A stretch of 64,000 nt of DNA. It comes from an uncultured Arcobacteraceae bacterium (GTDB taxonomy: Bacteria > Campylobacterota > Campylobacteria > Campylobacterales > Arcobacteraceae). The notes beneath the pieces are model-generated. The model made no database searches and was not told the DNA's origin. It saw only the letters and a program-made list of their open reading frames with translations. The stretch lies in NCBI GenBank assembly GCA_964022095.1, contig CAXHZO010000002.1:64001-128000 (forward strand), in the 5' to 3' direction. Made by a program: the position numbers and the translations under genes. Shown here in pieces: positions 12,147-26,332 of the stretch (positions within the stretch are counted from its first letter, which is position 1; each line of letters begins with the position of its first letter).

Positions 12147-13526
12147 TTATTTTAAGCTAGATGCATTGATAACTTGGTTTCTTCCACTTTGTTTTGCATT
12201 ATACATTGCAATATCTGCATTGGCTAACACTTCTTTAATTTCACTATGTTTATGGGCTTCACTAACACCAAATGATGCAGTTATTTGTCGTATTTCAAAG
12301 TTTTCATTTTCTATTAATTCTTTAAGTCTTTGAGCAATTATATTAGCTTCACTTTCATTTGTATTTTTACAAATTACTAAAAACTCTTCACCACCCCATC
12401 TTCCTAAAATATCATTAGAGTTTGTATTTTCTTTTAATAATTTTGCAAGACGAATTAATACTTTATCTCCCTCTAAGTGCCCAAAAACATCATTTATTTC
12501 TTTAAAGTTATCAATATCTAATAAAATTAAAGAGTACTTTTTGTTTTTTAATTGATTTAAAATCTCATCTATTTTTCTTCTATTGTAAAGTTTTGTTAAT
12601 GAGTCGGTTGTTGATAGCTCTTGTAACTGTTTATTATACTTTTTTAAATCTTTTTGTTTAAATATATAAAAGAGTATTAAAAGTATTAGTAAAATTATTA
12701 TTTGATAAAAGTATTCATAGTCTACAAATCTTTTATCAAACTTTACAGTTAGCCATTGATTGATTAAATCAGCTTTATCTTTTAGTGTTATTTGTGCAAT
12801 ATGTTTATTTATGACACTTAGTAGTTCTGGGTAATCATTTCTTACCATAAAAGAAATATTTACTTTTTCATCACTAGTCCCAGAAATTTTAAGATTATAG
12901 TACCCATTTAATGATATTAAGTGTGCAATTACAGGTAAAATGTCAATTACTGCATCAACTTTTCCTGCACTTAGTAGTTTCATCGCTACTTCAGTGTTTT
13001 TTACAAGTATAAAATTAATTTTCGGATATCTTTTTTTCATAATTAAGTAAGAACTATAGTTTTCACCCACTGCAACTCTTTTACCTTCTAAAAAAGAACC
13101 ATTTGGTATAAATCTTTTATCAAATAGTGTTGCAAAGGCAATAGGAAAAGAGATATAAGGGGTTGAAAATTGAGCATAAGATTTCTTTTGACTATCATAT
13201 GTTGTTCCTAACGTTATATCAGCTTCTTTCTTCTTAATTGAATCTAAAACATCATTCCAATCTTTAGCAATAATTGTATCTGATTTAATTCCTGCTCTTT
13301 GAGAAATTAAGTTCCAAAAATCAACAGCAATTCCTGATAATTTTTCTTCTTTATTATTCATGTTTATAGGTGCCCAAGTTTTCGAAGAAATTACTTTTAT
13401 ATTGGTATTTTCAATAAAACTTTTTTCTTCATTCGATAGTGAAATATATGATGCTACATCTTCTTGAGAATAGGCTATATTTATAAGAATCAATAAAGAA
13501 CTAATTAATTTAGTAAAACTTTTCAT
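12147..13526 (-). CDS. Diguanylate cyclase with periplasmic PBPb sensor domain
   Basis: Signal peptide, PBP domain, TM helix, TDSLTKLYNRR, DIDNFKEIND, RWGGEEF. Confidence 0.95.
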   Translation of the reverse strand: MKSFTKLISSLLILINIAYSQEDVASYISLSNEEKSFIENTNIKVISSKTWAPINMNNKEEKLSGIAVDFWNLISQRAGIKSDTIIAKDWNDVLDSIKKKEADITLGTTYDSQKKSYAQFSTPYISFPIAFATLFDKRFIPNGSFLEGKRVAVGENYSSYLIMKKRYPKINFILVKNTEVAMKLLSAGKVDAVIDILPVIAHLISLNGYYNLKISGTSDEKVNISFMVRNDYPELLSVINKHIAQITLKDKADLINQWLTVKFDKRFVDYEYFYQIIILLILLILFYIFKQKDLKKYNKQLQELSTTDSLTKLYNRRKIDEILNQLKNKKYSLILLDIDNFKEINDVFGHLEGDKVLIRLAKLLKENTNSNDILGRWGGEEFLVICKNTNESEANIIAQRLKELIENENFEIRQITASFGVSEAHKHSEIKEVLANADIAMYNAKQSGRNQVINASSLK

Positions 13527-13885: not shown

Positions 13886-16702
13886 TTACTTTATACTTAA
13901 CTCTTTTTCTAAATAATATCCAGTATATGAACCAGATTTTTTGTGATTTTTAGCTAGATTTTCAGGAGTTCCTTCATCAACTATCATACCACCTTTACTT
14001 CCACCTTCAGGACCCATATCTATAACCCAATCAGAATTTTTAATTACATCTAAATTATGCTCAATTACAAGTACAGAGTTTCCAACTTCAACAAGGTGAT
14101 GTAAAACTTTTGTAAGTCTATCAACATCTGCAAAGTGAAGTCCTGTTGTTGGCTCATCTAATACATAAAGAGTATTTCCAGTATCTTTTTTACTTAACTC
14201 TTTTGATAGTTTGATTCTTTGAGCTTCTCCTCCTGAAAGTGTTACAGCATTTTGACCAAGAGTAATATATCCAAGTCCCACATCGCTTAAAGTTTGAAGT
14301 TTAGCTTTAATTTTTGGAACTTTTATAAAGAACTCTAAAGCTTCATCAACACTCATACTTAATACTTCAGATATATTTTTCCCTTTATATAAAATCTCTA
14401 ATGTTTGAGCATTATATCTATGTCCACCACAGTCATCACACTTAACCATAATATCTGGTAAGAAGTGCATTTCAATTTTTATTTCACCTTCACCTTGACA
14501 TTTTTCACATCTTCCACCTTTAACATTAAATGAAAATCTACCTATTTTATAACCTCTAAGGCTAGCTTCTTTTGTTTTAGAAAATAGTGTTCTAATTTCA
14601 TCCATTAAACCTGTATACGTTGCAGGGTTAGATCTTGGAGTTCTACCAATTGGTGATTGGTCTAAGTAGATCACTTTATCAAGTTTTTCAAGTCCAGTTA
14701 TTTCAACTCCATCAACTTTGTTTACTTTTCTAGCATGATTTAATAACTCTTTTGCTACTGGAAGTAGGGTTTGTAAAATAAGTGAAGATTTCCCACTTCC
14801 ACTAACCCCTGTAATTGCACAAAGGTTTTTTAGTGGAATTTGAACATTTAGATTTTCAATATTATTTATCGTTACATTTTTTATTTCAATAAACTCTTCT
14901 TGGGGTCTATTGTGTGCATAATCGATTTTCTTTTTTCCATTCATGTACTGTGCAGTTAGTGTTTTTGCTTTGTTCATTTGAGGAAGTGTTCCTGCAAATA
15001 CAATTTCTCCACCATATTTACCTGCATTTGGACCAATATCAACTATATAATCAGCAGCTTCAATTGTCTCTTTATCATGCTCAACTACAATTACAGTATT
15101 ACCTTTTTCTTGTAAGGCTTTTAGTGTTTTAATAAGTTTACTTGTATCTCTTTCATGTAAACCAATTGATGGCTCATCAAGTACATACATTACACCAGTT
15201 AATCCAGAACCAATTTGTGAAGCAACTCTAATTCTTTGAGCTTCTCCCCCTGAAATTGTTCTTGCATCTCTTCCTAGTGTTATATATCCAAGTCCTACAT
15301 CATGTAAGAAGAAAATTCTCTCTTTTATCTCTTTTAAAATTGGTTTTGAAATCATTTGATTTTGTTCATTAAAGTATTCAAAGTTTTTTTCATCTTGGAA
15401 AAATGCATGGGCATCTTCAATTGGTTGGTTTATAATATCTGAAATGGTTTTTTGAGCTACAAAAACACTTTGAGAAGATGGTTTTAATCTATTTCCATTA
15501 CAGTCACTACATCTTTTTTCAGTCATGTATTCAGCCATCTCTTTTTCATCTTTGATCATGTCATATGCTAGCTTTATTACACCTTCCCATTTTCTTGTAA
15601 GTTTATGTCTTTTCCATGTAAATTTTGCTTCTTCTACCCCACCATGTAAAATTGCTTTTTGTTTATGAGAGGGTAACTCTTTAAATGGTATTTTAATATC
15701 AATATCAGCTGCTTCACAATAAGCCATAAGCATTTTGAAATAAAAACCTTTATTAAATCCATAGATGACTTTAATTGCACCATCTTCAAGTGGCAACTCA
15801 TCATTAACTACTTTTTTCATATCAAGTGCATATCTAATACCAAGTCCATCACAAGAACTACAAGCTCCTTTTGGTGAGTTAAATGAGAATGATAATGGCT
15901 CTAATGGTTCAAAAGATATTTTACAATCAAAACAAGCCATGTGCTCACTATAGTGAATATGTTTATCCGTTCCAACTTCCTCATGATTCATAACTTCAAC
16001 TTCAAGCTCTCCAAAAGATTCTTTTAAACCTTTCTCTACATCTTGTGCAATTCTATCTTTGTTTTCTTCTTTGATAACTACTCTATCAATTACTACTTTG
16101 ATAGTATGCATTTTATTCTTTTCTAATTCTATGTCTTCATCAAGTCTTGCCATAACTCCATCAATCATGGCTCTTACATAACCTTTACCTCTAAGACTTT
16201 CAAGTAAATCAGCAAATGTTCCTTTTTTCCTATTTATTAATGGTGCTAAAATAACTATTTTTGAATTATCAGGTAATTTCAATACTTGATCAATTACATC
16301 ACTTGCACTCATTTGTGAAATAGGTTCGCCACATTTATGACAATGTTGTTTTCCAACTCTTGCATATAGTAATCTTAAGTAATCATATACTTCTGTAATC
16401 GTTCCAACAGTTGATCTTGGATTTTTAGAAGTTGTTTTTTGATCAATTGCAATTGCAGGAGTTAAACCTTCAATTCTTTCAACATCAGGTTTTCCTACTT
16501 TGTCCAAGAATTGTCTAGCATAAGCAGAAAGTGATTCTATATATCTTCTTTGACCTTCTGCGTATAATGTATCAAACGCTAGTGTAGATTTACCAGAACC
16601 AGATAGTCCTGTAAAAACTATTAGCTTGTTTTTGGGTATTTCTAGATTTATATTTTTTAAATTATTTTCTTTTGCATTAAATATTTTGATTGAATCTTTC
16701 AT
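13886..16702 (-). CDS. uvrA: Excinuclease ABC subunit A
   Basis: Two ABC cassettes (GLSGSGKS, GVSGSGKS, SGGEAQR twice), zinc fingers, LYAEGQRRY. Confidence 0.99.
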   Translation of the reverse strand: MKDSIKIFNAKENNLKNINLEIPKNKLIVFTGLSGSGKSTLAFDTLYAEGQRRYIESLSAYARQFLDKVGKPDVERIEGLTPAIAIDQKTTSKNPRSTVGTITEVYDYLRLLYARVGKQHCHKCGEPISQMSASDVIDQVLKLPDNSKIVILAPLINRKKGTFADLLESLRGKGYVRAMIDGVMARLDEDIELEKNKMHTIKVVIDRVVIKEENKDRIAQDVEKGLKESFGELEVEVMNHEEVGTDKHIHYSEHMACFDCKISFEPLEPLSFSFNSPKGACSSCDGLGIRYALDMKKVVNDELPLEDGAIKVIYGFNKGFYFKMLMAYCEAADIDIKIPFKELPSHKQKAILHGGVEEAKFTWKRHKLTRKWEGVIKLAYDMIKDEKEMAEYMTEKRCSDCNGNRLKPSSQSVFVAQKTISDIINQPIEDAHAFFQDEKNFEYFNEQNQMISKPILKEIKERIFFLHDVGLGYITLGRDARTISGGEAQRIRVASQIGSGLTGVMYVLDEPSIGLHERDTSKLIKTLKALQEKGNTVIVVEHDKETIEAADYIVDIGPNAGKYGGEIVFAGTLPQMNKAKTLTAQYMNGKKKIDYAHNRPQEEFIEIKNVTINNIENLNVQIPLKNLCAITGVSGSGKSSLILQTLLPVAKELLNHARKVNKVDGVEITGLEKLDKVIYLDQSPIGRTPRSNPATYTGLMDEIRTLFSKTKEASLRGYKIGRFSFNVKGGRCEKCQGEGEIKIEMHFLPDIMVKCDDCGGHRYNAQTLEILYKGKNISEVLSMSVDEALEFFIKVPKIKAKLQTLSDVGLGYITLGQNAVTLSGGEAQRIKLSKELSKKDTGNTLYVLDEPTTGLHFADVDRLTKVLHHLVEVGNSVLVIEHNLDVIKNSDWVIDMGPEGGSKGGMIVDEGTPENLAKNHKKSGSYTGYYLEKELSIK

Positions 16703-16815
16703 TAATAGTTGCCTTTAAATTTTTGAAGCTAATATTATAGGGTACATTACATAATAATCTATTAAAGATAATTTAGATATTTTTTGAAAGTGACTTACAT
16801 AAAAAGGTTATTAGT

Positions 16816-19362
16816 GTGAATAGATATATTAATAATTTTAGGTTCGGTGATAATTTATTTTATTACTGTGATTTAAAAAAGCTTTATAATGATTATCCTG
16901 TTTTAGAAAAATTGCCTAATTGTTTAAAAGTATTATTAGAATCAAATGTTAGAAATAGTAATGATTATAATTTAGAATCTATTATTGATATATTTGTCTC
17001 AAAAAATAAAAATAAAAAAATTCAGTTCGAAGCAACTAGAATTATTATGCAAGATTTAACTTCAATTCCTATTTTAATTGATTTGGCTTCTATGAGAGAA
17101 GAGGCTTTAAATATAGGTGAAGATATAGATAAAATTAATCCAAACGTTATGGTCGATTTAATTATTGACCACTCTTTAGATATATCAAAAACAAGCACTT
17201 CTGATAGCTTGGAAATAAATTTAAAAAATGAAATATCAAAAAATGAAGAGAAATATGAGTTTATTAAATGGGCTTCTAATAGTTTTAAAAACTTTTCAGT
17301 AGTTCCTCCTGGTTTTGGAATATCTCATCAAATAAATTTAGAATACCTTTCTACAATGATTTGTTTAAAACAAATAGATGAAAAGGTTTTTATATATCCT
17401 GAAACCGTTGTTGGTACTGATTTACACACAAGTATGATTAACTCATTAGGTATTTTAGGATGGGAAATAGGTGGCCTTGAAGCACAATGTATGATGTTTG
17501 ATTCTCATTCATCATTCTCTTTACCTAGTATTACAGGTGTAAAGTTAGTTGGAACATTAGATCAAGGTGTTACTATAAGTGATGTTGCTTTAAGTTTTAC
17601 AAACTTTATAAATGAACTAAAAACACATCAAGAGTTTATAGAGTTTTATGGTGAAGGGATAAAAGAGTTATCCTTAGAAGATAGAGCAACAATATCAAAT
17701 ATGGCAAATGAGTATAATGTTGCAGTGTCATTTTTTGGAGTTGATGATAATACTATTTCATATATTGAAAAAACTAGAGGGGTTGATGCTTCGCTAATTA
17801 GACAATACTATACTTTACTTGGTATGTATAATAATTATGATCAACTTGATTATGATGAAAACCTAGAGTTTGATTTATCTTTAGTTAAACCAGTTGTTGC
17901 AGGACCAGCAAGTTCTGAAAATAAAGTTTTAGCAAATAAAGTTCCTAGTAAGTTAAAAAGTTTTAAAAGAGGTAATTTATTAAAAGCAAATGATATTGTT
18001 TTAGGAAGTATAACTTCTTGTATGAGTAGTTCTAATCCTAGCTTAATAATTCAAGCAGCCCTTTTAATCAAAAATGCCATAAATTATGGTTTGGAAATAA
18101 ACTCAAATATCAAAAAAGTTTTTGCACCAGGTTCATATGTAGTTAAGTCTTATTTGAAACAATTAGATTTGTTAAAATATTTTGAGCATATTGGTTTTCA
18201 TATCTCAGGCTTTGGTTGTGCTAGTTGTTTTGGAAATAGTGGAGATTTATTACCTGGAATTGTTGATGAAATTACAAAGTATGACTTAGATGTAAGTTCA
18301 GTTAGTAGCGGCAATAGAAATTTTAAAGAAAATGTAAATCCTTTAGTTAAATCAAACTGGCTAATGTCTCCTGCTTTAGTAGTTGCATACTGTTTAAAAG
18401 GAACAATTAATTGTAATATTATTGATGATGAAATTTCAAAAGGGGTATATCTTAATGATATTTGGCCTAGTAATTTAGAAGTAAATGAGTATCTAAATAA
18501 AATTGATTCTTTACTGTACTTAAAAAGTTATAACAACATTTTTTTAGGAAATAATTATTGGCAAGCTTTAAATATACACAATGAGCCAGTATATGATTGG
18601 AATGAAGATTCAACATATATTCACCCTTCAACATTTTCTAAAAATATTAATATAGAAAAAATTGAAATTAAAAACGCTAGATTATTAGCAGTTTTAGGTG
18701 ATGATATATTAAATGAAGATATTTCTGCAATGGGGAAGATTAGTGAGAACTTAATAGCTAGAGAGTACCTTTTAGAAAAAGGAATTTCCGTTTCACAGCT
18801 TGGAACTTTTGAAAATAGAAAAGGGAATGTTGATTTAATGATAAGAGGAATTTTATCTTCCCCTAATTTAAAAAATAGAATTATATCTCCAAAAGAGGGC
18901 AGTTTGACAAGAGATTATGAAACAAATGAAATAATTTCAATATTTGAATTCTCAAAGAAAATGAAAGCTAAAAACACTCCTTTAGTTCTTTTTGTAGGAG
19001 ATAATTTTGGAGGAGGAGTTATTAGAGATTGGGCATCAAAAGGTTTAAGTATGTTAGGAGTTAAAGCAATTGTTGCAAAATCTTTTGATCATAACTTTAA
19101 ACTAAATTTAGTAAGAGTAGGAATACTACCTTTAGAGTTTGATAAAAATAATGTGGATTCTATAGAGTTTAGTGGAGAAGAGAAAATATCAATTAAAAGG
19201 GAAAATTTAATACCTAATGAAAAAATTGAATTAGATATTGAAAAAAATGGTTTTATTAAAACAGTTATAGTTCAATCTAAATTAGAAAACTTACAAGAAA
19301 TTGATTATTATAGAAGTGGTGGGGCTTTATCTTATATATTTAAAAACATTTACTCTTTTTAA
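16816..19362 (+). CDS. Aconitase A-like protein with degenerate active site
   Basis: Colinear with AcnA (IDHS, HQINLE, ITSC, GCASCFGNSG, SGNRNF, RDWASKG) but several catalytic residues are replaced; GTG start with AAGG SD. Confidence 0.88.
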   Translation: MNRYINNFRFGDNLFYYCDLKKLYNDYPVLEKLPNCLKVLLESNVRNSNDYNLESIIDIFVSKNKNKKIQFEATRIIMQDLTSIPILIDLASMREEALNIGEDIDKINPNVMVDLIIDHSLDISKTSTSDSLEINLKNEISKNEEKYEFIKWASNSFKNFSVVPPGFGISHQINLEYLSTMICLKQIDEKVFIYPETVVGTDLHTSMINSLGILGWEIGGLEAQCMMFDSHSSFSLPSITGVKLVGTLDQGVTISDVALSFTNFINELKTHQEFIEFYGEGIKELSLEDRATISNMANEYNVAVSFFGVDDNTISYIEKTRGVDASLIRQYYTLLGMYNNYDQLDYDENLEFDLSLVKPVVAGPASSENKVLANKVPSKLKSFKRGNLLKANDIVLGSITSCMSSSNPSLIIQAALLIKNAINYGLEINSNIKKVFAPGSYVVKSYLKQLDLLKYFEHIGFHISGFGCASCFGNSGDLLPGIVDEITKYDLDVSSVSSGNRNFKENVNPLVKSNWLMSPALVVAYCLKGTINCNIIDDEISKGVYLNDIWPSNLEVNEYLNKIDSLLYLKSYNNIFLGNNYWQALNIHNEPVYDWNEDSTYIHPSTFSKNINIEKIEIKNARLLAVLGDDILNEDISAMGKISENLIAREYLLEKGISVSQLGTFENRKGNVDLMIRGILSSPNLKNRIISPKEGSLTRDYETNEIISIFEFSKKMKAKNTPLVLFVGDNFGGGVIRDWASKGLSMLGVKAIVAKSFDHNFKLNLVRVGILPLEFDKNNVDSIEFSGEEKISIKRENLIPNEKIELDIEKNGFIKTVIVQSKLENLQEIDYYRSGGALSYIFKNIYSF

Positions 19363-20099
19363 GAGATAAATGTTTTATATACCATTGTAATTAAAATTAC
19401 AATATTTAAAATTAGGATATATTTTTTATATGAAGTTGAATTAATAGTATGTTTAGCTTTAATACCAAAAAATACTCCAATAAGTGAAGCAATACCTACT
19501 ATTGCACCTTCTAAAAATAGCATATGTCCATGCAGTGACATAGATGTAAATCCTGCAATTGAAGAGAATATTACAAAGAATAGTCCAAGTGAAGTCGCTG
19601 ATTTTAGGTCATATCTTAAGAATCCTACTAAAATAGGAGTTAATAGAATTGATCCTCCAACACCTATACTCATAGCAAAAATACCAATGAAAAAGCCAAT
19701 TACAAATAAAACAAACTTATTATGAGTTTTCGATTCTTGATTATGTTCTGCAGGTGAGAAAAATATTTTAACAATAGAGAAAATCAATATAGCAATAAAT
19801 ATATATTGTAAAGTTTCATTAGAAACATTAGAAACAATTAAACCACTTTGAAGACCACCAACAAAACCTCCAATACCAATAATTATTCCATCTTTTAAAA
19901 CATTTTTTGCTTTTTTCGCATTTAAAAAAGAGCCATAAATTGAACTAAATACCATTTGCATTATAGATATTGCAATTGCTTGTTTCATAACAAAACCAGC
20001 AACAAGTAGCATTGGAACAAGTACCATTCCTCCTCCAACTCCAAAAAAGCCAGAGATAAAACCTGTTAATACCCCAAATAGTAAAAGTTCAAGTATCAT
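19359..20099 (-). CDS. Sulfite exporter TauE/SafE family protein
   Basis: GFFGVGGG and IGVGGS repeats, about 8 TM helices. Confidence 0.92.
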   Translation of the reverse strand: MILELLLFGVLTGFISGFFGVGGGMVLVPMLLVAGFVMKQAIAISIMQMVFSSIYGSFLNAKKAKNVLKDGIIIGIGGFVGGLQSGLIVSNVSNETLQYIFIAILIFSIVKIFFSPAEHNQESKTHNKFVLFVIGFFIGIFAMSIGVGGSILLTPILVGFLRYDLKSATSLGLFFVIFSSIAGFTSMSLHGHMLFLEGAIVGIASLIGVFFGIKAKHTINSTSYKKYILILNIVILITMVYKTFIS

Positions 20100-20845
20100 T
20101 ATTTTTTCTTAATAGAATTCATAGCATTAATGAATTTATTATAATCCTCTTCTAATTTCTTATCTTTATCACTAACATCAATTCCATCTTGCTCTTTTAG
20201 GGCAATTTCAAGTACATGAATTCTTTCAATTAAATACTTGAACATCTCTTTATTTATATCTGGTAAGTCACCATGGTCAAGTTTACAGTTTTTATTATCT
20301 TTTTTGATTATTCTAGCTGGAACACCAACTGCTGTACTATTTTTTGGAACATCACAAACTACAACAGAGTTTGCTCCAATTTTAGAGTTTTTGCCTATTG
20401 TGATATTTCCTAAAACTTTTGCACCACTTCCAATAACTGCGTTTGATTTAATAGTAGGGTGTCTTTTCCCCTTATCTAAACTAACACCACCTAGTGTCAC
20501 TCCTTGATAAATTAATACATCATCTTCAATAATTGTCGTTGCCCCAATTACAACACCAATTGCATGATCAATAAACACTCTTCTTCCTATTGTCGCTGCT
20601 GGGTGAATATCTGTTTTTGTAAATAGTGATGAAAATCCAGTTAATGCTCTAGATAGTTTCTTCCAGCCTCTATTATATAATCTATTAGCGATTCTGTGAT
20701 TAATTATAGCCCAAACACCAGGATAGTTAAAAAATAGTTCAAAGCTTGAATCTAGTGCGGGATCATTTAATTTTGGTACAGAAAAATCCTCTTTTATTTG
20801 TTTCCAAAGTGATAAATCTTTTGGTTTTTTTTCTTCATTCGTCAT
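20099..20845 (-). CDS. cysE: Serine O-acetyltransferase
   Basis: DIHPAATIG, FIDH, QGVTLGG, KRHPT, hexapeptide repeats. Confidence 0.96.
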   Translation of the reverse strand: MTNEEKKPKDLSLWKQIKEDFSVPKLNDPALDSSFELFFNYPGVWAIINHRIANRLYNRGWKKLSRALTGFSSLFTKTDIHPAATIGRRVFIDHAIGVVIGATTIIEDDVLIYQGVTLGGVSLDKGKRHPTIKSNAVIGSGAKVLGNITIGKNSKIGANSVVVCDVPKNSTAVGVPARIIKKDNKNCKLDHGDLPDINKEMFKYLIERIHVLEIALKEQDGIDVSDKDKKLEEDYNKFINAMNSIKKK

Positions 20846-25690: not shown

Positions 25691-26332
25691 ATGTCTCATG
25701 TTTATTCGTATGTTAGAGTTAATAAAAATAATGAATCATATACTCAAAACCAAAAGGTCTCAATTAGCAATTATATTGATGAACATAATATTTCTATTTA
25801 TAAAGAGTTTGAGATAGAAATTTCAAGTTCACATGAAGAGAAAAATATCTTAGAACTTTTAAGAAATAGTGAAAAAAATTCAACATTAATTGTTTCTGAT
25901 TTAAATGTATTTGGTAGAACAATTGAAACAATTTTAGAAATTGTTAAATTCTTGCTTTCTAATAAAGTTAGAATAATAGCTATAAAACAAAACCTTGAAT
26001 TAGTAGATGATAAAGACATGTTAACTCAAATGATTTTAGGCGTTATTTCAATGACTATGAATTTAGAAAAAGATTTAATGAGTCTAAGAACAAAAGAAGC
26101 TTTAAGTGTAAAAAAACAAAATGGAATTGCCTTAGGTAAACCAAAAGGTACAATTCAAAAGTCAAAATTTGATGATCAAAGAGATAAAATTGAAGAGTTA
26201 TTACAACTTGGTTTATCTGTTAGAAAAATTGCAAAACTTCTTGGTTATAACAATCATATTGGATTAAATAACTATGTTAAGAAGAGAAAGATAAGAGAAA
26301 ATTTGCCTAATACTCTTAATATCGCTAGCTAA
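25691..26332 (+). CDS. Serine recombinase (resolvase/invertase) family protein, predicted catalytically inactive
   Basis: Resolvase fold motifs (YVRV, LIVS.L..FGR, RTKEAL, LGKPKG, C-terminal HTH) but catalytic Ser replaced by Asn. Confidence 0.85.
   Translation: MSHVYSYVRVNKNNESYTQNQKVSISNYIDEHNISIYKEFEIEISSSHEEKNILELLRNSEKNSTLIVSDLNVFGRTIETILEIVKFLLSNKVRIIAIKQNLELVDDKDMLTQMILGVISMTMNLEKDLMSLRTKEALSVKKQNGIALGKPKGTIQKSKFDDQRDKIEELLQLGLSVRKIAKLLGYNNHIGLNNYVKKRKIRENLPNTLNIAS

Follow-up and report, generated by a model that had tools for sequence, protein, structure and literature searches.

The 64,000-nucleotide stretch of DNA analysed here (the window: positions 64,001 to 128,000 of contig CAXHZO010000002.1, assembly GCA_964022095.1, from an uncultured Arcobacteraceae bacterium) carries on its + strand, at positions 16816..19362, a gene that encodes a paralogue of the AcnA/IRP type, probably non-catalytic, which we call pAcn. 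The gene was delimited by its open reading frame, its Pfam and NCBIfam matches and an AlphaFold2 model; it starts with GTG, stops with TAA and encodes 848 amino acids (aa), among them the three cysteines that would hold an iron-sulphur (Fe-S) cluster. From its sequence, pAcn is very probably functional, though not as an aconitase. Our overall reading, to which we give a probability of roughly 0.45, is that pAcn is a non-catalytic protein of the aconitase fold, cluster-binding in this organism, that would act as a sensor or regulator in the manner of IRP1 and IRP2. The original prediction had called this single gene a pseudo-aconitase; the description holds, but the gene is not a single oddity, since it belongs to a syntenic clade found across the family.

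That pAcn is a full-length AcnA homologue, as had been predicted, is borne out by both Pfam domains (Aconitase, PF00330, E 3.5e-110; Aconitase_C, PF00694, E 2.5e-21), by NCBIfam and by an alignment with IRP1 over the whole length. In NCBIfam the protein scores above the cut-off of the AcnA subfamily NF006757 (848 vs 686 bits), under that of the AcnA equivalog TIGR01341 (821 vs 945 bits) and at 518 bits against the AcnD equivalog TIGR02333 (cut-off 1420). The closest solved structures by sequence are IRP1 (E 7e-166, aligned end to end) and IRP2, and a search of the ESM Atlas returned aconitase clusters only. The AlphaFold2 model, built from an alignment of 85 sequences, has a mean predicted local distance difference test score (pLDDT) of 89.6 and a predicted template-modelling score (pTM) of 0.90, and is weakest at residues 502-505; it superposes with a template-modelling (TM) score of 0.90 on AcnA (9a4j), of 0.85 on closed IRP1 (2b3x) and, less well than on the closed forms, of 0.71 on IRP1 bound to the iron-responsive element (IRE). 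By domain content, length (~850-900 aa) and four-domain fold, pAcn falls within the AcnA/IRP branch of the aconitase superfamily, and shares with AcnA and IRP1 the fold, the length class and an end-to-end alignment at 33-40% identity. It differs from AcnA in several short deletions, the longest being of 10 residues after position 381.

The active site is where pAcn departs from its relatives. Residue numbers were verified by alignment with the chains of pig mitochondrial aconitase (mAcn) and IRP1, residue n of pAcn lying at 16816+3(n-1); the active-site labels are those of the mitochondrial aconitase literature, and two of them fit PDB titles (S642A:citrate and R644Q:fluorocitrate), according to which the S642A and R644Q mutants of the mitochondrial enzyme served to trap substrate or inhibitor. 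Like AcnA and IRP1, the window's pAcn has the cysteine triad, formed by Cys402 (18019..18021, +; mAcn C358, IRP1 C437) and by Cys468-x-x-Cys471 (18217..18228, +; mAcn C421 and C424, with codons at 18217 and 18226), together with most of the residues on the cluster side. In mAcn numbering, Q72, D100, H101, H147, D165, H167, N258, E262, C358, C421, C424, N446, R447 and R644 are all retained, which makes 14 of the 19 active-site positions. Unlike AcnA and IRP1, it lacks the others. The catalytic pair Ser642-Ser643 is replaced by Val735-Ile736 (19018..19023, +), next to the kept Arg644 (R737), within a GGGVIRD motif whose counterparts are GEG(A/S)SR in mitochondrial aconitase and GAGSSR in IRP1. 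Ser166 has become Leu203 (17422..17424, +; GTDSHT to GTDLHT), D165/S166/H167 of mAcn being D202/L203/H204 here. Two of the four arginines that bind the substrate carboxylates, R447 (R501) and R644 (R737), are kept, and the other two are gone: Arg452 (IRP1 R541) is Asn506 (18331..18333, +; NRNFEGR to NRNFKEN) and Arg580 (IRP1 R713) is Lys669 (18820..18822, +; SRRGN to NRKGN). IRP1 R699 (pAcn K655), tried as the equivalent of R580, was rejected, its column being variable in canonical AcnA (K in 13, R in 3 and L in 3 of 25 sequences).

Nearly all of this had been anticipated by the original prediction, whose positions for the three cysteines (18019, 18217 and 18226), for TDLHT (17422), for NRNFKEN (18331) and for the Val-Ile pair of GGGVIRD (19018-19023) are exact; the motifs that it listed as kept (IIDHS, ISHQ and GNRNF) are present, and the changes of TTDHISP to LNEDISA and of SFERIHRSNL to SFDHNFKLNL were found as described. 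The replacement of R580 by K669 was absent from its list. In an alignment of 25 canonical AcnA sequences the active-site columns, kept or changed in pAcn, show no variation, those of S166, R452, R580, S642 and S643 included, so the changes go beyond ordinary variation of the family, and the claim that catalytic residues have been lost and that this is no normal aconitase is sustained.

The annotation 'aconitate hydratase AcnA', given to the homologues of pAcn in public databases (once 'aconitase family protein'), implies a working aconitase, which would have to use a different base. We consider this highly improbable. The AcnA names given by the sources and the score above the NF006757 cut-off speak for it; the score below the equivalog cut-off, the five changed residues invariant in the real enzymes and the presence of another aconitase in the genome all speak against it. 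Indeed, when this genome (2.57 Mb in 31 contigs, 99.99% complete) was checked for an intact acnA or acnB, as had been proposed, it proved to encode a bona fide AcnB (1412 bits, TIGR00117 cut-off 1287), to which the isomerisation of citrate to isocitrate would fall; a further aconitase-family gene encodes a LeuC-type large subunit. Set against the description of EC 4.2.1.3, pAcn has the cysteine triad, as read from the alignment, and lacks Ser642-Ser643, the complete set of four arginines and the TIGR01341 score. Lost catalytic residues, a kept frame and fold, purifying selection and an active AcnB in the same genome are the marks of a pseudoenzyme, and all four are found here; we infer that pAcn is inactive.

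Nor is pAcn the other AcnA-like protein of the Arcobacteraceae. That second class, of ~865-880 aa, is found in most genomes of the family, is 33-35% identical to pAcn and branches separately, as AcnD; each of the 3 AcnD sequences checked keeps all catalytic residues bar Gln72 (His). pAcn differs from it in its score (518 vs 1420 bits) and in its surroundings, where uvrA, a TauE-like gene and cysE are found and prpF/prpBC are not. According to the passages on aconitases in the Arcobacter butzleri genome paper (PMC2147049), AcnD acts in the AcnD/PrpF methylcitrate route as an Fe/S-dependent 2-methylisocitrate dehydratase; besides AcnB and AcnD, these passages describe no further aconitase. AcnD is present in the congener and in most of the family, yet the window's genome has no AcnD-class match, its sole AcnA-like match being pAcn; the AcnD/PrpF route may be missing from this organism.

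pAcn has many relatives. Among its 120 best database homologues there is a large set of proteins of 806-857 aa, 40-72% identical to it, with degenerate active sites, and the canonical AcnA proteins (880-946 aa), in which every motif is intact, rank lower; the named sources of the former are Malaciobacter pacificus (72%), Aliarcobacter sp., Poseidonibacter, Halarcobacter and Arcobacter species. We found pAcn in 37 of 121 Arcobacteraceae genomes, from 7 of 22 genera, at 38-100% identity and with open frames of 801-861 aa, and pieces of it in three further, fragmented assemblies of the family; outside the family there was no match in 285 sampled Campylobacterota genomes (E up to 1e-150). In a FastTree phylogeny of 99 rows, dereplicated at 90% and with rows below 780 aa dropped, 71 rows with degenerate AcnA form a single branch (SH-like, that is Shimodaira-Hasegawa-like, support 100; stem 0.42). 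Canonical AcnA (~890 aa) occurs in two Arcobacteraceae genomes, both of which also have pAcn, and it is the AcnA of these two that the pAcn branch adjoins, which makes pAcn a paralogue rather than a diverged orthologue of AcnA. On the tree, then, the clade branches off inside the diversity of canonical AcnA, and the Arcobacteraceae are where this paralogue originated.

The gene has been maintained. In the window its 848 codons are unbroken, and at the ~27% G+C of this DNA about 8% of random codons would be stops, so a frame of this length is not there by chance; no open reading frame of at least 80 aa overlaps it on either strand. In pairwise Nei-Gojobori comparisons with the congener, the ratio of non-synonymous to synonymous rates (dN/dS) is 0.19 for pAcn and 0.045-0.055 for three neighbouring genes, with dN at 0.184 and 0.033-0.044, respectively. 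Across the clade the ratio lies between 0.056 and 0.31 in 14 of 14 pairs, including pairs in which dS is unsaturated (0.37-0.45) and lineages with at most one of the cysteines, although the values are rough because dS is near saturation (close to 1) for several pairs. Judged from these coding sequences, pAcn is under purifying selection, relaxed several-fold, rather than in neutral decay. The original prediction had argued for selection from the open frame; it had also named frameshifts and neutral evolution as signs to look for in the orthologues, and neither was seen, all 29 complete orthologous frames, from several genera, being open; the stops flagged in the genome search proved to be their terminal codons. 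A decaying relic, a pseudogene-in-waiting that stays open by chance or was inactivated recently, would fit a gene that evolves about five times faster than its neighbours at non-synonymous sites and whose active site is progressively eroded across the clade. It is hardly credible for a gene whose frames are open in several genera with ~27% G+C DNA, with dN/dS as low as this in every pair, with a confident structural model, with a conserved start context and with 140 columns at least 90% conserved.

Those 140 columns, in the 71-member clade, compare with 255 in canonical AcnA; they are mostly glycine, proline, aromatic residues and the aliphatic core, and none of the four domains is without them. 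Taken domain by domain, members of the pAcn clade, all from one family, have a mean pairwise identity of 44-52%, whereas canonical AcnA proteins from many phyla share 54-60% in each of their four catalytic domains (37% in the linker); pAcn thus evolves far faster. That one domain might be more conserved than the rest was ruled out by these per-domain identities. Five conserved residues, E196, R321, N429, I432 and K755, are specific to the clade.

When the substitutions were followed through the orthologues, as the original prediction had advised, Ser642 was found in 3 of the 71 clade members (25/25 in canonical AcnA) and Arg452 in 11; R447 is kept in 12, R644 in 27 and R580, invariant in canonical AcnA, in 37%. 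The histidine of TTDH remains in 7% and the arginine of ERIHR in none. The cluster ligands have been lost too: Cys402 is present in 46/71, Cys468 in 28/71 and Cys471 in 12/71, so that 12 members have all three, 14 have two, 22 have one and 23 have none; on the tree, the triad must have been lost in five changes or more. The rest of the pocket goes with the ligands, 7.6 of 8 cluster-side residues being kept on average in members with three cysteines and 3.5 of 8 in those with none.

The window's own lineage shows a different pattern. It is a subclade of 8 rows (support 99, mean pairwise identity 53%) in which D100, H101, D165, H167, N258, E262, N446 and the three cysteines are invariant, that is, 10 of 13 cluster-side sites, as compared with 0 of 5 sites that bind the substrate carboxylates or provide the base (Fisher p 0.0065). 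Across the eight rows, the position of R447 reads R,R,R,I,R,R,Q,Q, that of R452 N,N,R,K,F,T,H,Y, that of S642 V,V,N,S,K,K,Q,E and that of R644 R,R,V,R,L,S,C,F. Since 23% of all subclade columns are invariant, and 44% of those invariant in canonical AcnA, the chance of finding 10 of 13 is 6e-5 against the former and 0.018 against the latter, p-values that are only indicative because the sequences are related. As far as the alignment records it, the pocket in the window's lineage is constrained on its cluster side and free to drift on its substrate side, and the odds lean slightly towards pAcn binding a cluster in this lineage.

The same comparison bears on the idea, raised in the original prediction, that pAcn is an enzyme with a new substrate. 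Such an Fe-S (de)hydratase or isomerase would keep D100/H101, D165/H167 and E262, act on a less charged substrate in a pocket made hydrophobic by Leu203, Val735 and Ile736, and use another base. The 14 retained active-site positions, the triad, R447 and R644 among them, and the invariance of the cluster-side residues in the subclade would suit it, and the aconitase superfamily has moved to other substrates before (AcnX, AcnD, homoaconitase). However, the substrate-binding positions vary even among the eight closest relatives, none of the five being conserved, which makes a new enzymatic activity unlikely. There is no conserved base at or beside position 642, the cluster ligands are missing from most of the clade, the loop at residues 502-505 is the least confident stretch of the model, and uvrA, the TauE-like gene and cysE offer no pathway context. 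We regard this explanation as improbable.

The original prediction had also suggested an Fe-S or oxidant sensor. In the window's subclade, with its invariant triad and pocket, this is plausible; as the function of the whole clade it fails, since only 12 of 71 members have the triad and 23 have no ligand at all, and sensing through a cluster cannot be common to them. The mechanism that we propose has two parts. In the window's lineage, pAcn would retain a [4Fe-4S] cluster, while the pocket around it would no longer turn over a defined substrate; the presence, loss or oxidation of this cluster would shift the protein between closed and open states, and this shift would control the binding of a partner (RNA, DNA or protein) in the way of IRP1. 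Members without the cysteines would be cluster-independent, IRP2-like versions doing the same non-enzymatic job, so that the function of the clade as a whole would be the non-enzymatic binding of some partner. By analogy with IRP1 and IRP2, a role as regulator or sensor through partner binding is a tentative proposal, a little short of even odds, and that the partner is RNA is doubtful.

This proposal has precedents on both sides of the catalytic divide. Apo-aconitases act as mRNA regulators in several bacteria (E. coli AcnA and AcnB, B. subtilis CitB, H. pylori AcnB and the aconitase of S. aureus); these are bifunctional, active enzymes, whereas pAcn would be a dedicated, enzyme-dead version. 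IRP2 is a vertebrate paralogue of a working aconitase-type protein, a regulator without catalysis, and is not known to carry a cluster. In the alignment with 6vcd, IRP2 keeps the three cysteines and the fold and has changed its catalytic Ser to Asn and R536 to K; the changes of pAcn are alike in kind, which lends support to the analogy. The two also differ: (i) IRP2 keeps the IRE-contact residues and motifs of the TTDHISP and ERIH types, which pAcn does not; (ii) the insertion typical of IRP2 in domain 1 is absent from pAcn; and (iii) the control of IRP2 is by FBXL5-dependent degradation (title of 6vcd), a system not known from bacteria, and IRP2 and pAcn are of independent origin.

Several observations weigh against this sensor or regulator reading. 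The eleven IRE-contact residues of IRP1 that we compared (R269, S371, K379, T438, N439, S681, P682, R713, R780, D781 and W782) were taken from passages of PMC3048577 and PMC4184891. Of these, five are kept in pAcn (K370, S636, R737, D738 and W739), one is changed conservatively (R713 to K669) and five are lost (R269 to N266, S371 to A362, T438 to M403, N439 to S404 and P682 to A637); R269 is kept in 4% of the clade. pAcn is acidic (isoelectric point, pI, 5.1; net charge about -23; clade median pI 5.45), which is unfavourable to the binding of nucleic acids; the thought that its charge might be basic, and so point to RNA, was accordingly dropped. The comparison of IRE residues, made as it was with contacts of IRP1 and not of a bacterial aconitase, neither shows nor excludes RNA binding. 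Retention of the cysteines is by itself no proof of a cluster, because IRP2 keeps all three; the force that preserves the clade needs no cluster, since so few members have the triad; all four domains are relaxed alike, so that no surface is singled out; the dN/dS values are rough, as noted; and the tree is a single FastTree reconstruction.

A rival explanation is a maintained role that is not regulatory, in which pAcn is a scaffold or partner in an assembly of the tricarboxylic acid cycle, a holder or buffer of Fe-S clusters, or a DNA-associated protein (yeast Aco1, for instance, associates with mitochondrial DNA), the cluster being incidental or structural. Purifying selection persists in the clade after the cysteines are lost, conservation is even over the four domains, as it would be for a fold kept whole, the best structural match (9a4j) is the AcnA chain of an AcnA-IDH assembly model, the protein is acidic and its divergent adjacency to uvrA is conserved. 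Nevertheless, an incidental cluster leaves the 10 of 13 invariant cluster-side residues of the subclade unexplained, and the gene is monocistronic, lying between divergent and convergent neighbours, so that operon structure points to no partner. On balance we hold a non-regulatory role to be rather unlikely.

Some of the signals around the gene recur among the orthologues. Upstream, at 16760-16785 (+), lies the block ATTAAAG..AATTTAGATAYTTTT, with an extended -10-like element, which is also found 5' of pAcn orthologues in another genus (four loci) and which we take to be a putative promoter. In the same upstream region (16760..16815), a Shine-Dalgarno-like AAGG (16804-16807, +) stands 8 nt ahead of the GTG, and most orthologous loci have an AGG or GGA motif 5-10 nt ahead of the start. 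A promoter consensus scan of the pAcn region found 23 promoter-like sites where 22 were expected, no better than shuffled sequence; a terminator consensus scan gave no site in 16500-19600, and a comparison of 16400-19800 with Rfam yielded nothing at E up to 1. A search for RNA sequencing runs covering 16000-20200 listed none. The start codon of 29 complete orthologues is TTG in 22, GTG in 2 and ATG in 5, as assigned by a 'first start' rule that may misplace a few. It is followed across the orthologues by a conserved AAT-AGA/AAG-TAT/TTT (the start itself being 16816-16818 in the window), and the keeping of a non-ATG start across genera is unusual. Such TTG or GTG starts would suit a regulator of low abundance more than a bulk enzyme.

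At its other end, pAcn shares the four nucleotides TTAA (19359..19362), which hold its own stop codon (+) and that of a convergent TauE-like gene (-), with no intergenic space. The two transcripts must overlap at their 3' ends, because the stops overlap and no terminator-like site was found. Close tail-to-tail spacing was seen again in several orthologous loci, and the overlap suggests a possible antisense coupling of pAcn with the speA-cysE-TauE-like operon.

The neighbours themselves serve as markers of synteny: uvrA (13886..16702, -; NCBIfam NF001503, 1383 bits), divergent from pAcn, and, on the other side, the TauE/SafE-like membrane protein (19359-20099, -) and cysE (20099-20845, -), which together span 19359..20845. 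Of the 37 genome matches we fetched 30 loci with 1.5-kb flanks, and in 26 of them pAcn lies beside uvrA (16) and/or the TauE-like/cysE pair (20), both markers being present in 10; the remaining 4 have neither within the flanks, one of them ending at a contig end. In a genome without pAcn (one locus) the TauE-like gene directly abuts uvrA. In one genus that lacks pAcn, ~1.5 kb of other sequence, without tblastn similarity to pAcn, separates the two. Identity to the window's copy is 87-97% for uvrA, 73-93% for cysE, 60-94% for the TauE-like gene and 40-72% for pAcn. On two metagenome contigs a cysteine-less form of pAcn, of 832 aa, likewise has a divergent uvrA beside it, at 89% identity to the window's copy; the contig JBGSBO010000069.1 (27.7% G+C) among these is filed under 'Candidatus Paceibacteria bacterium' and would seem to be Arcobacteraceae DNA that binning put into the wrong metagenome-assembled genome (MAG).

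Three further genes of the surroundings may be mentioned. Directly downstream of uvrA is an open reading frame of 114 aa without family matches, which comes after a gene (12147-13526, -) for a 459-aa protein with a periplasmic substrate-binding-like part and a GGDEF diguanylate cyclase; and just past the run ubiX-coaD-tmk-hisS-speA-cysE lies a gene (25691-26332, +) for a serine recombinase of the Mpi family (DNA invertase, 213 aa), which may mark an invertible or mobile segment.

A search of full-text literature, subscription-only papers lying outside its scope, returned nothing on a non-catalytic bacterial AcnA paralogue or on an Arcobacteraceae clade of this kind. IRP2 in animals and the moonlighting aconitases of bacteria are already known; what would be new is a dedicated, enzyme-dead bacterial clade of AcnA with repeated loss of the Fe-S ligands. 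It is conceivable, if improbable, that this clade is a dedicated bacterial counterpart of the IRP1/IRP2 pair, an enzyme-dead aconitase with post-transcriptional regulation, or regulation through some other partner, as its sole task, with a cluster switch responding to iron or oxidants in lineages such as the window's and at least five lineages independently turned cluster-free, IRP2-like and constitutive; on such a reading, the tail-to-tail overlap with the operon of the TauE-like gene and cysE and the promoter region shared with uvrA would hint at targets in cysteine supply or in the repair of oxidative DNA damage. Because pAcn is annotated as 'aconitate hydratase AcnA', aconitases are probably over-counted in metabolic reconstructions of Malaciobacter, Halarcobacter, Poseidonibacter and related MAGs. 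The clade, in which Fe-S ligands have been lost repeatedly on one fold, should be useful for the study of pseudoenzyme evolution. Aconitases are the classic example of an enzyme that doubles as a regulator. If the sensor or regulator reading is right, the catalytic and regulatory roles of aconitases would have been separated by nature in these bacteria, and the non-enzymatic role of the fold would become directly testable.

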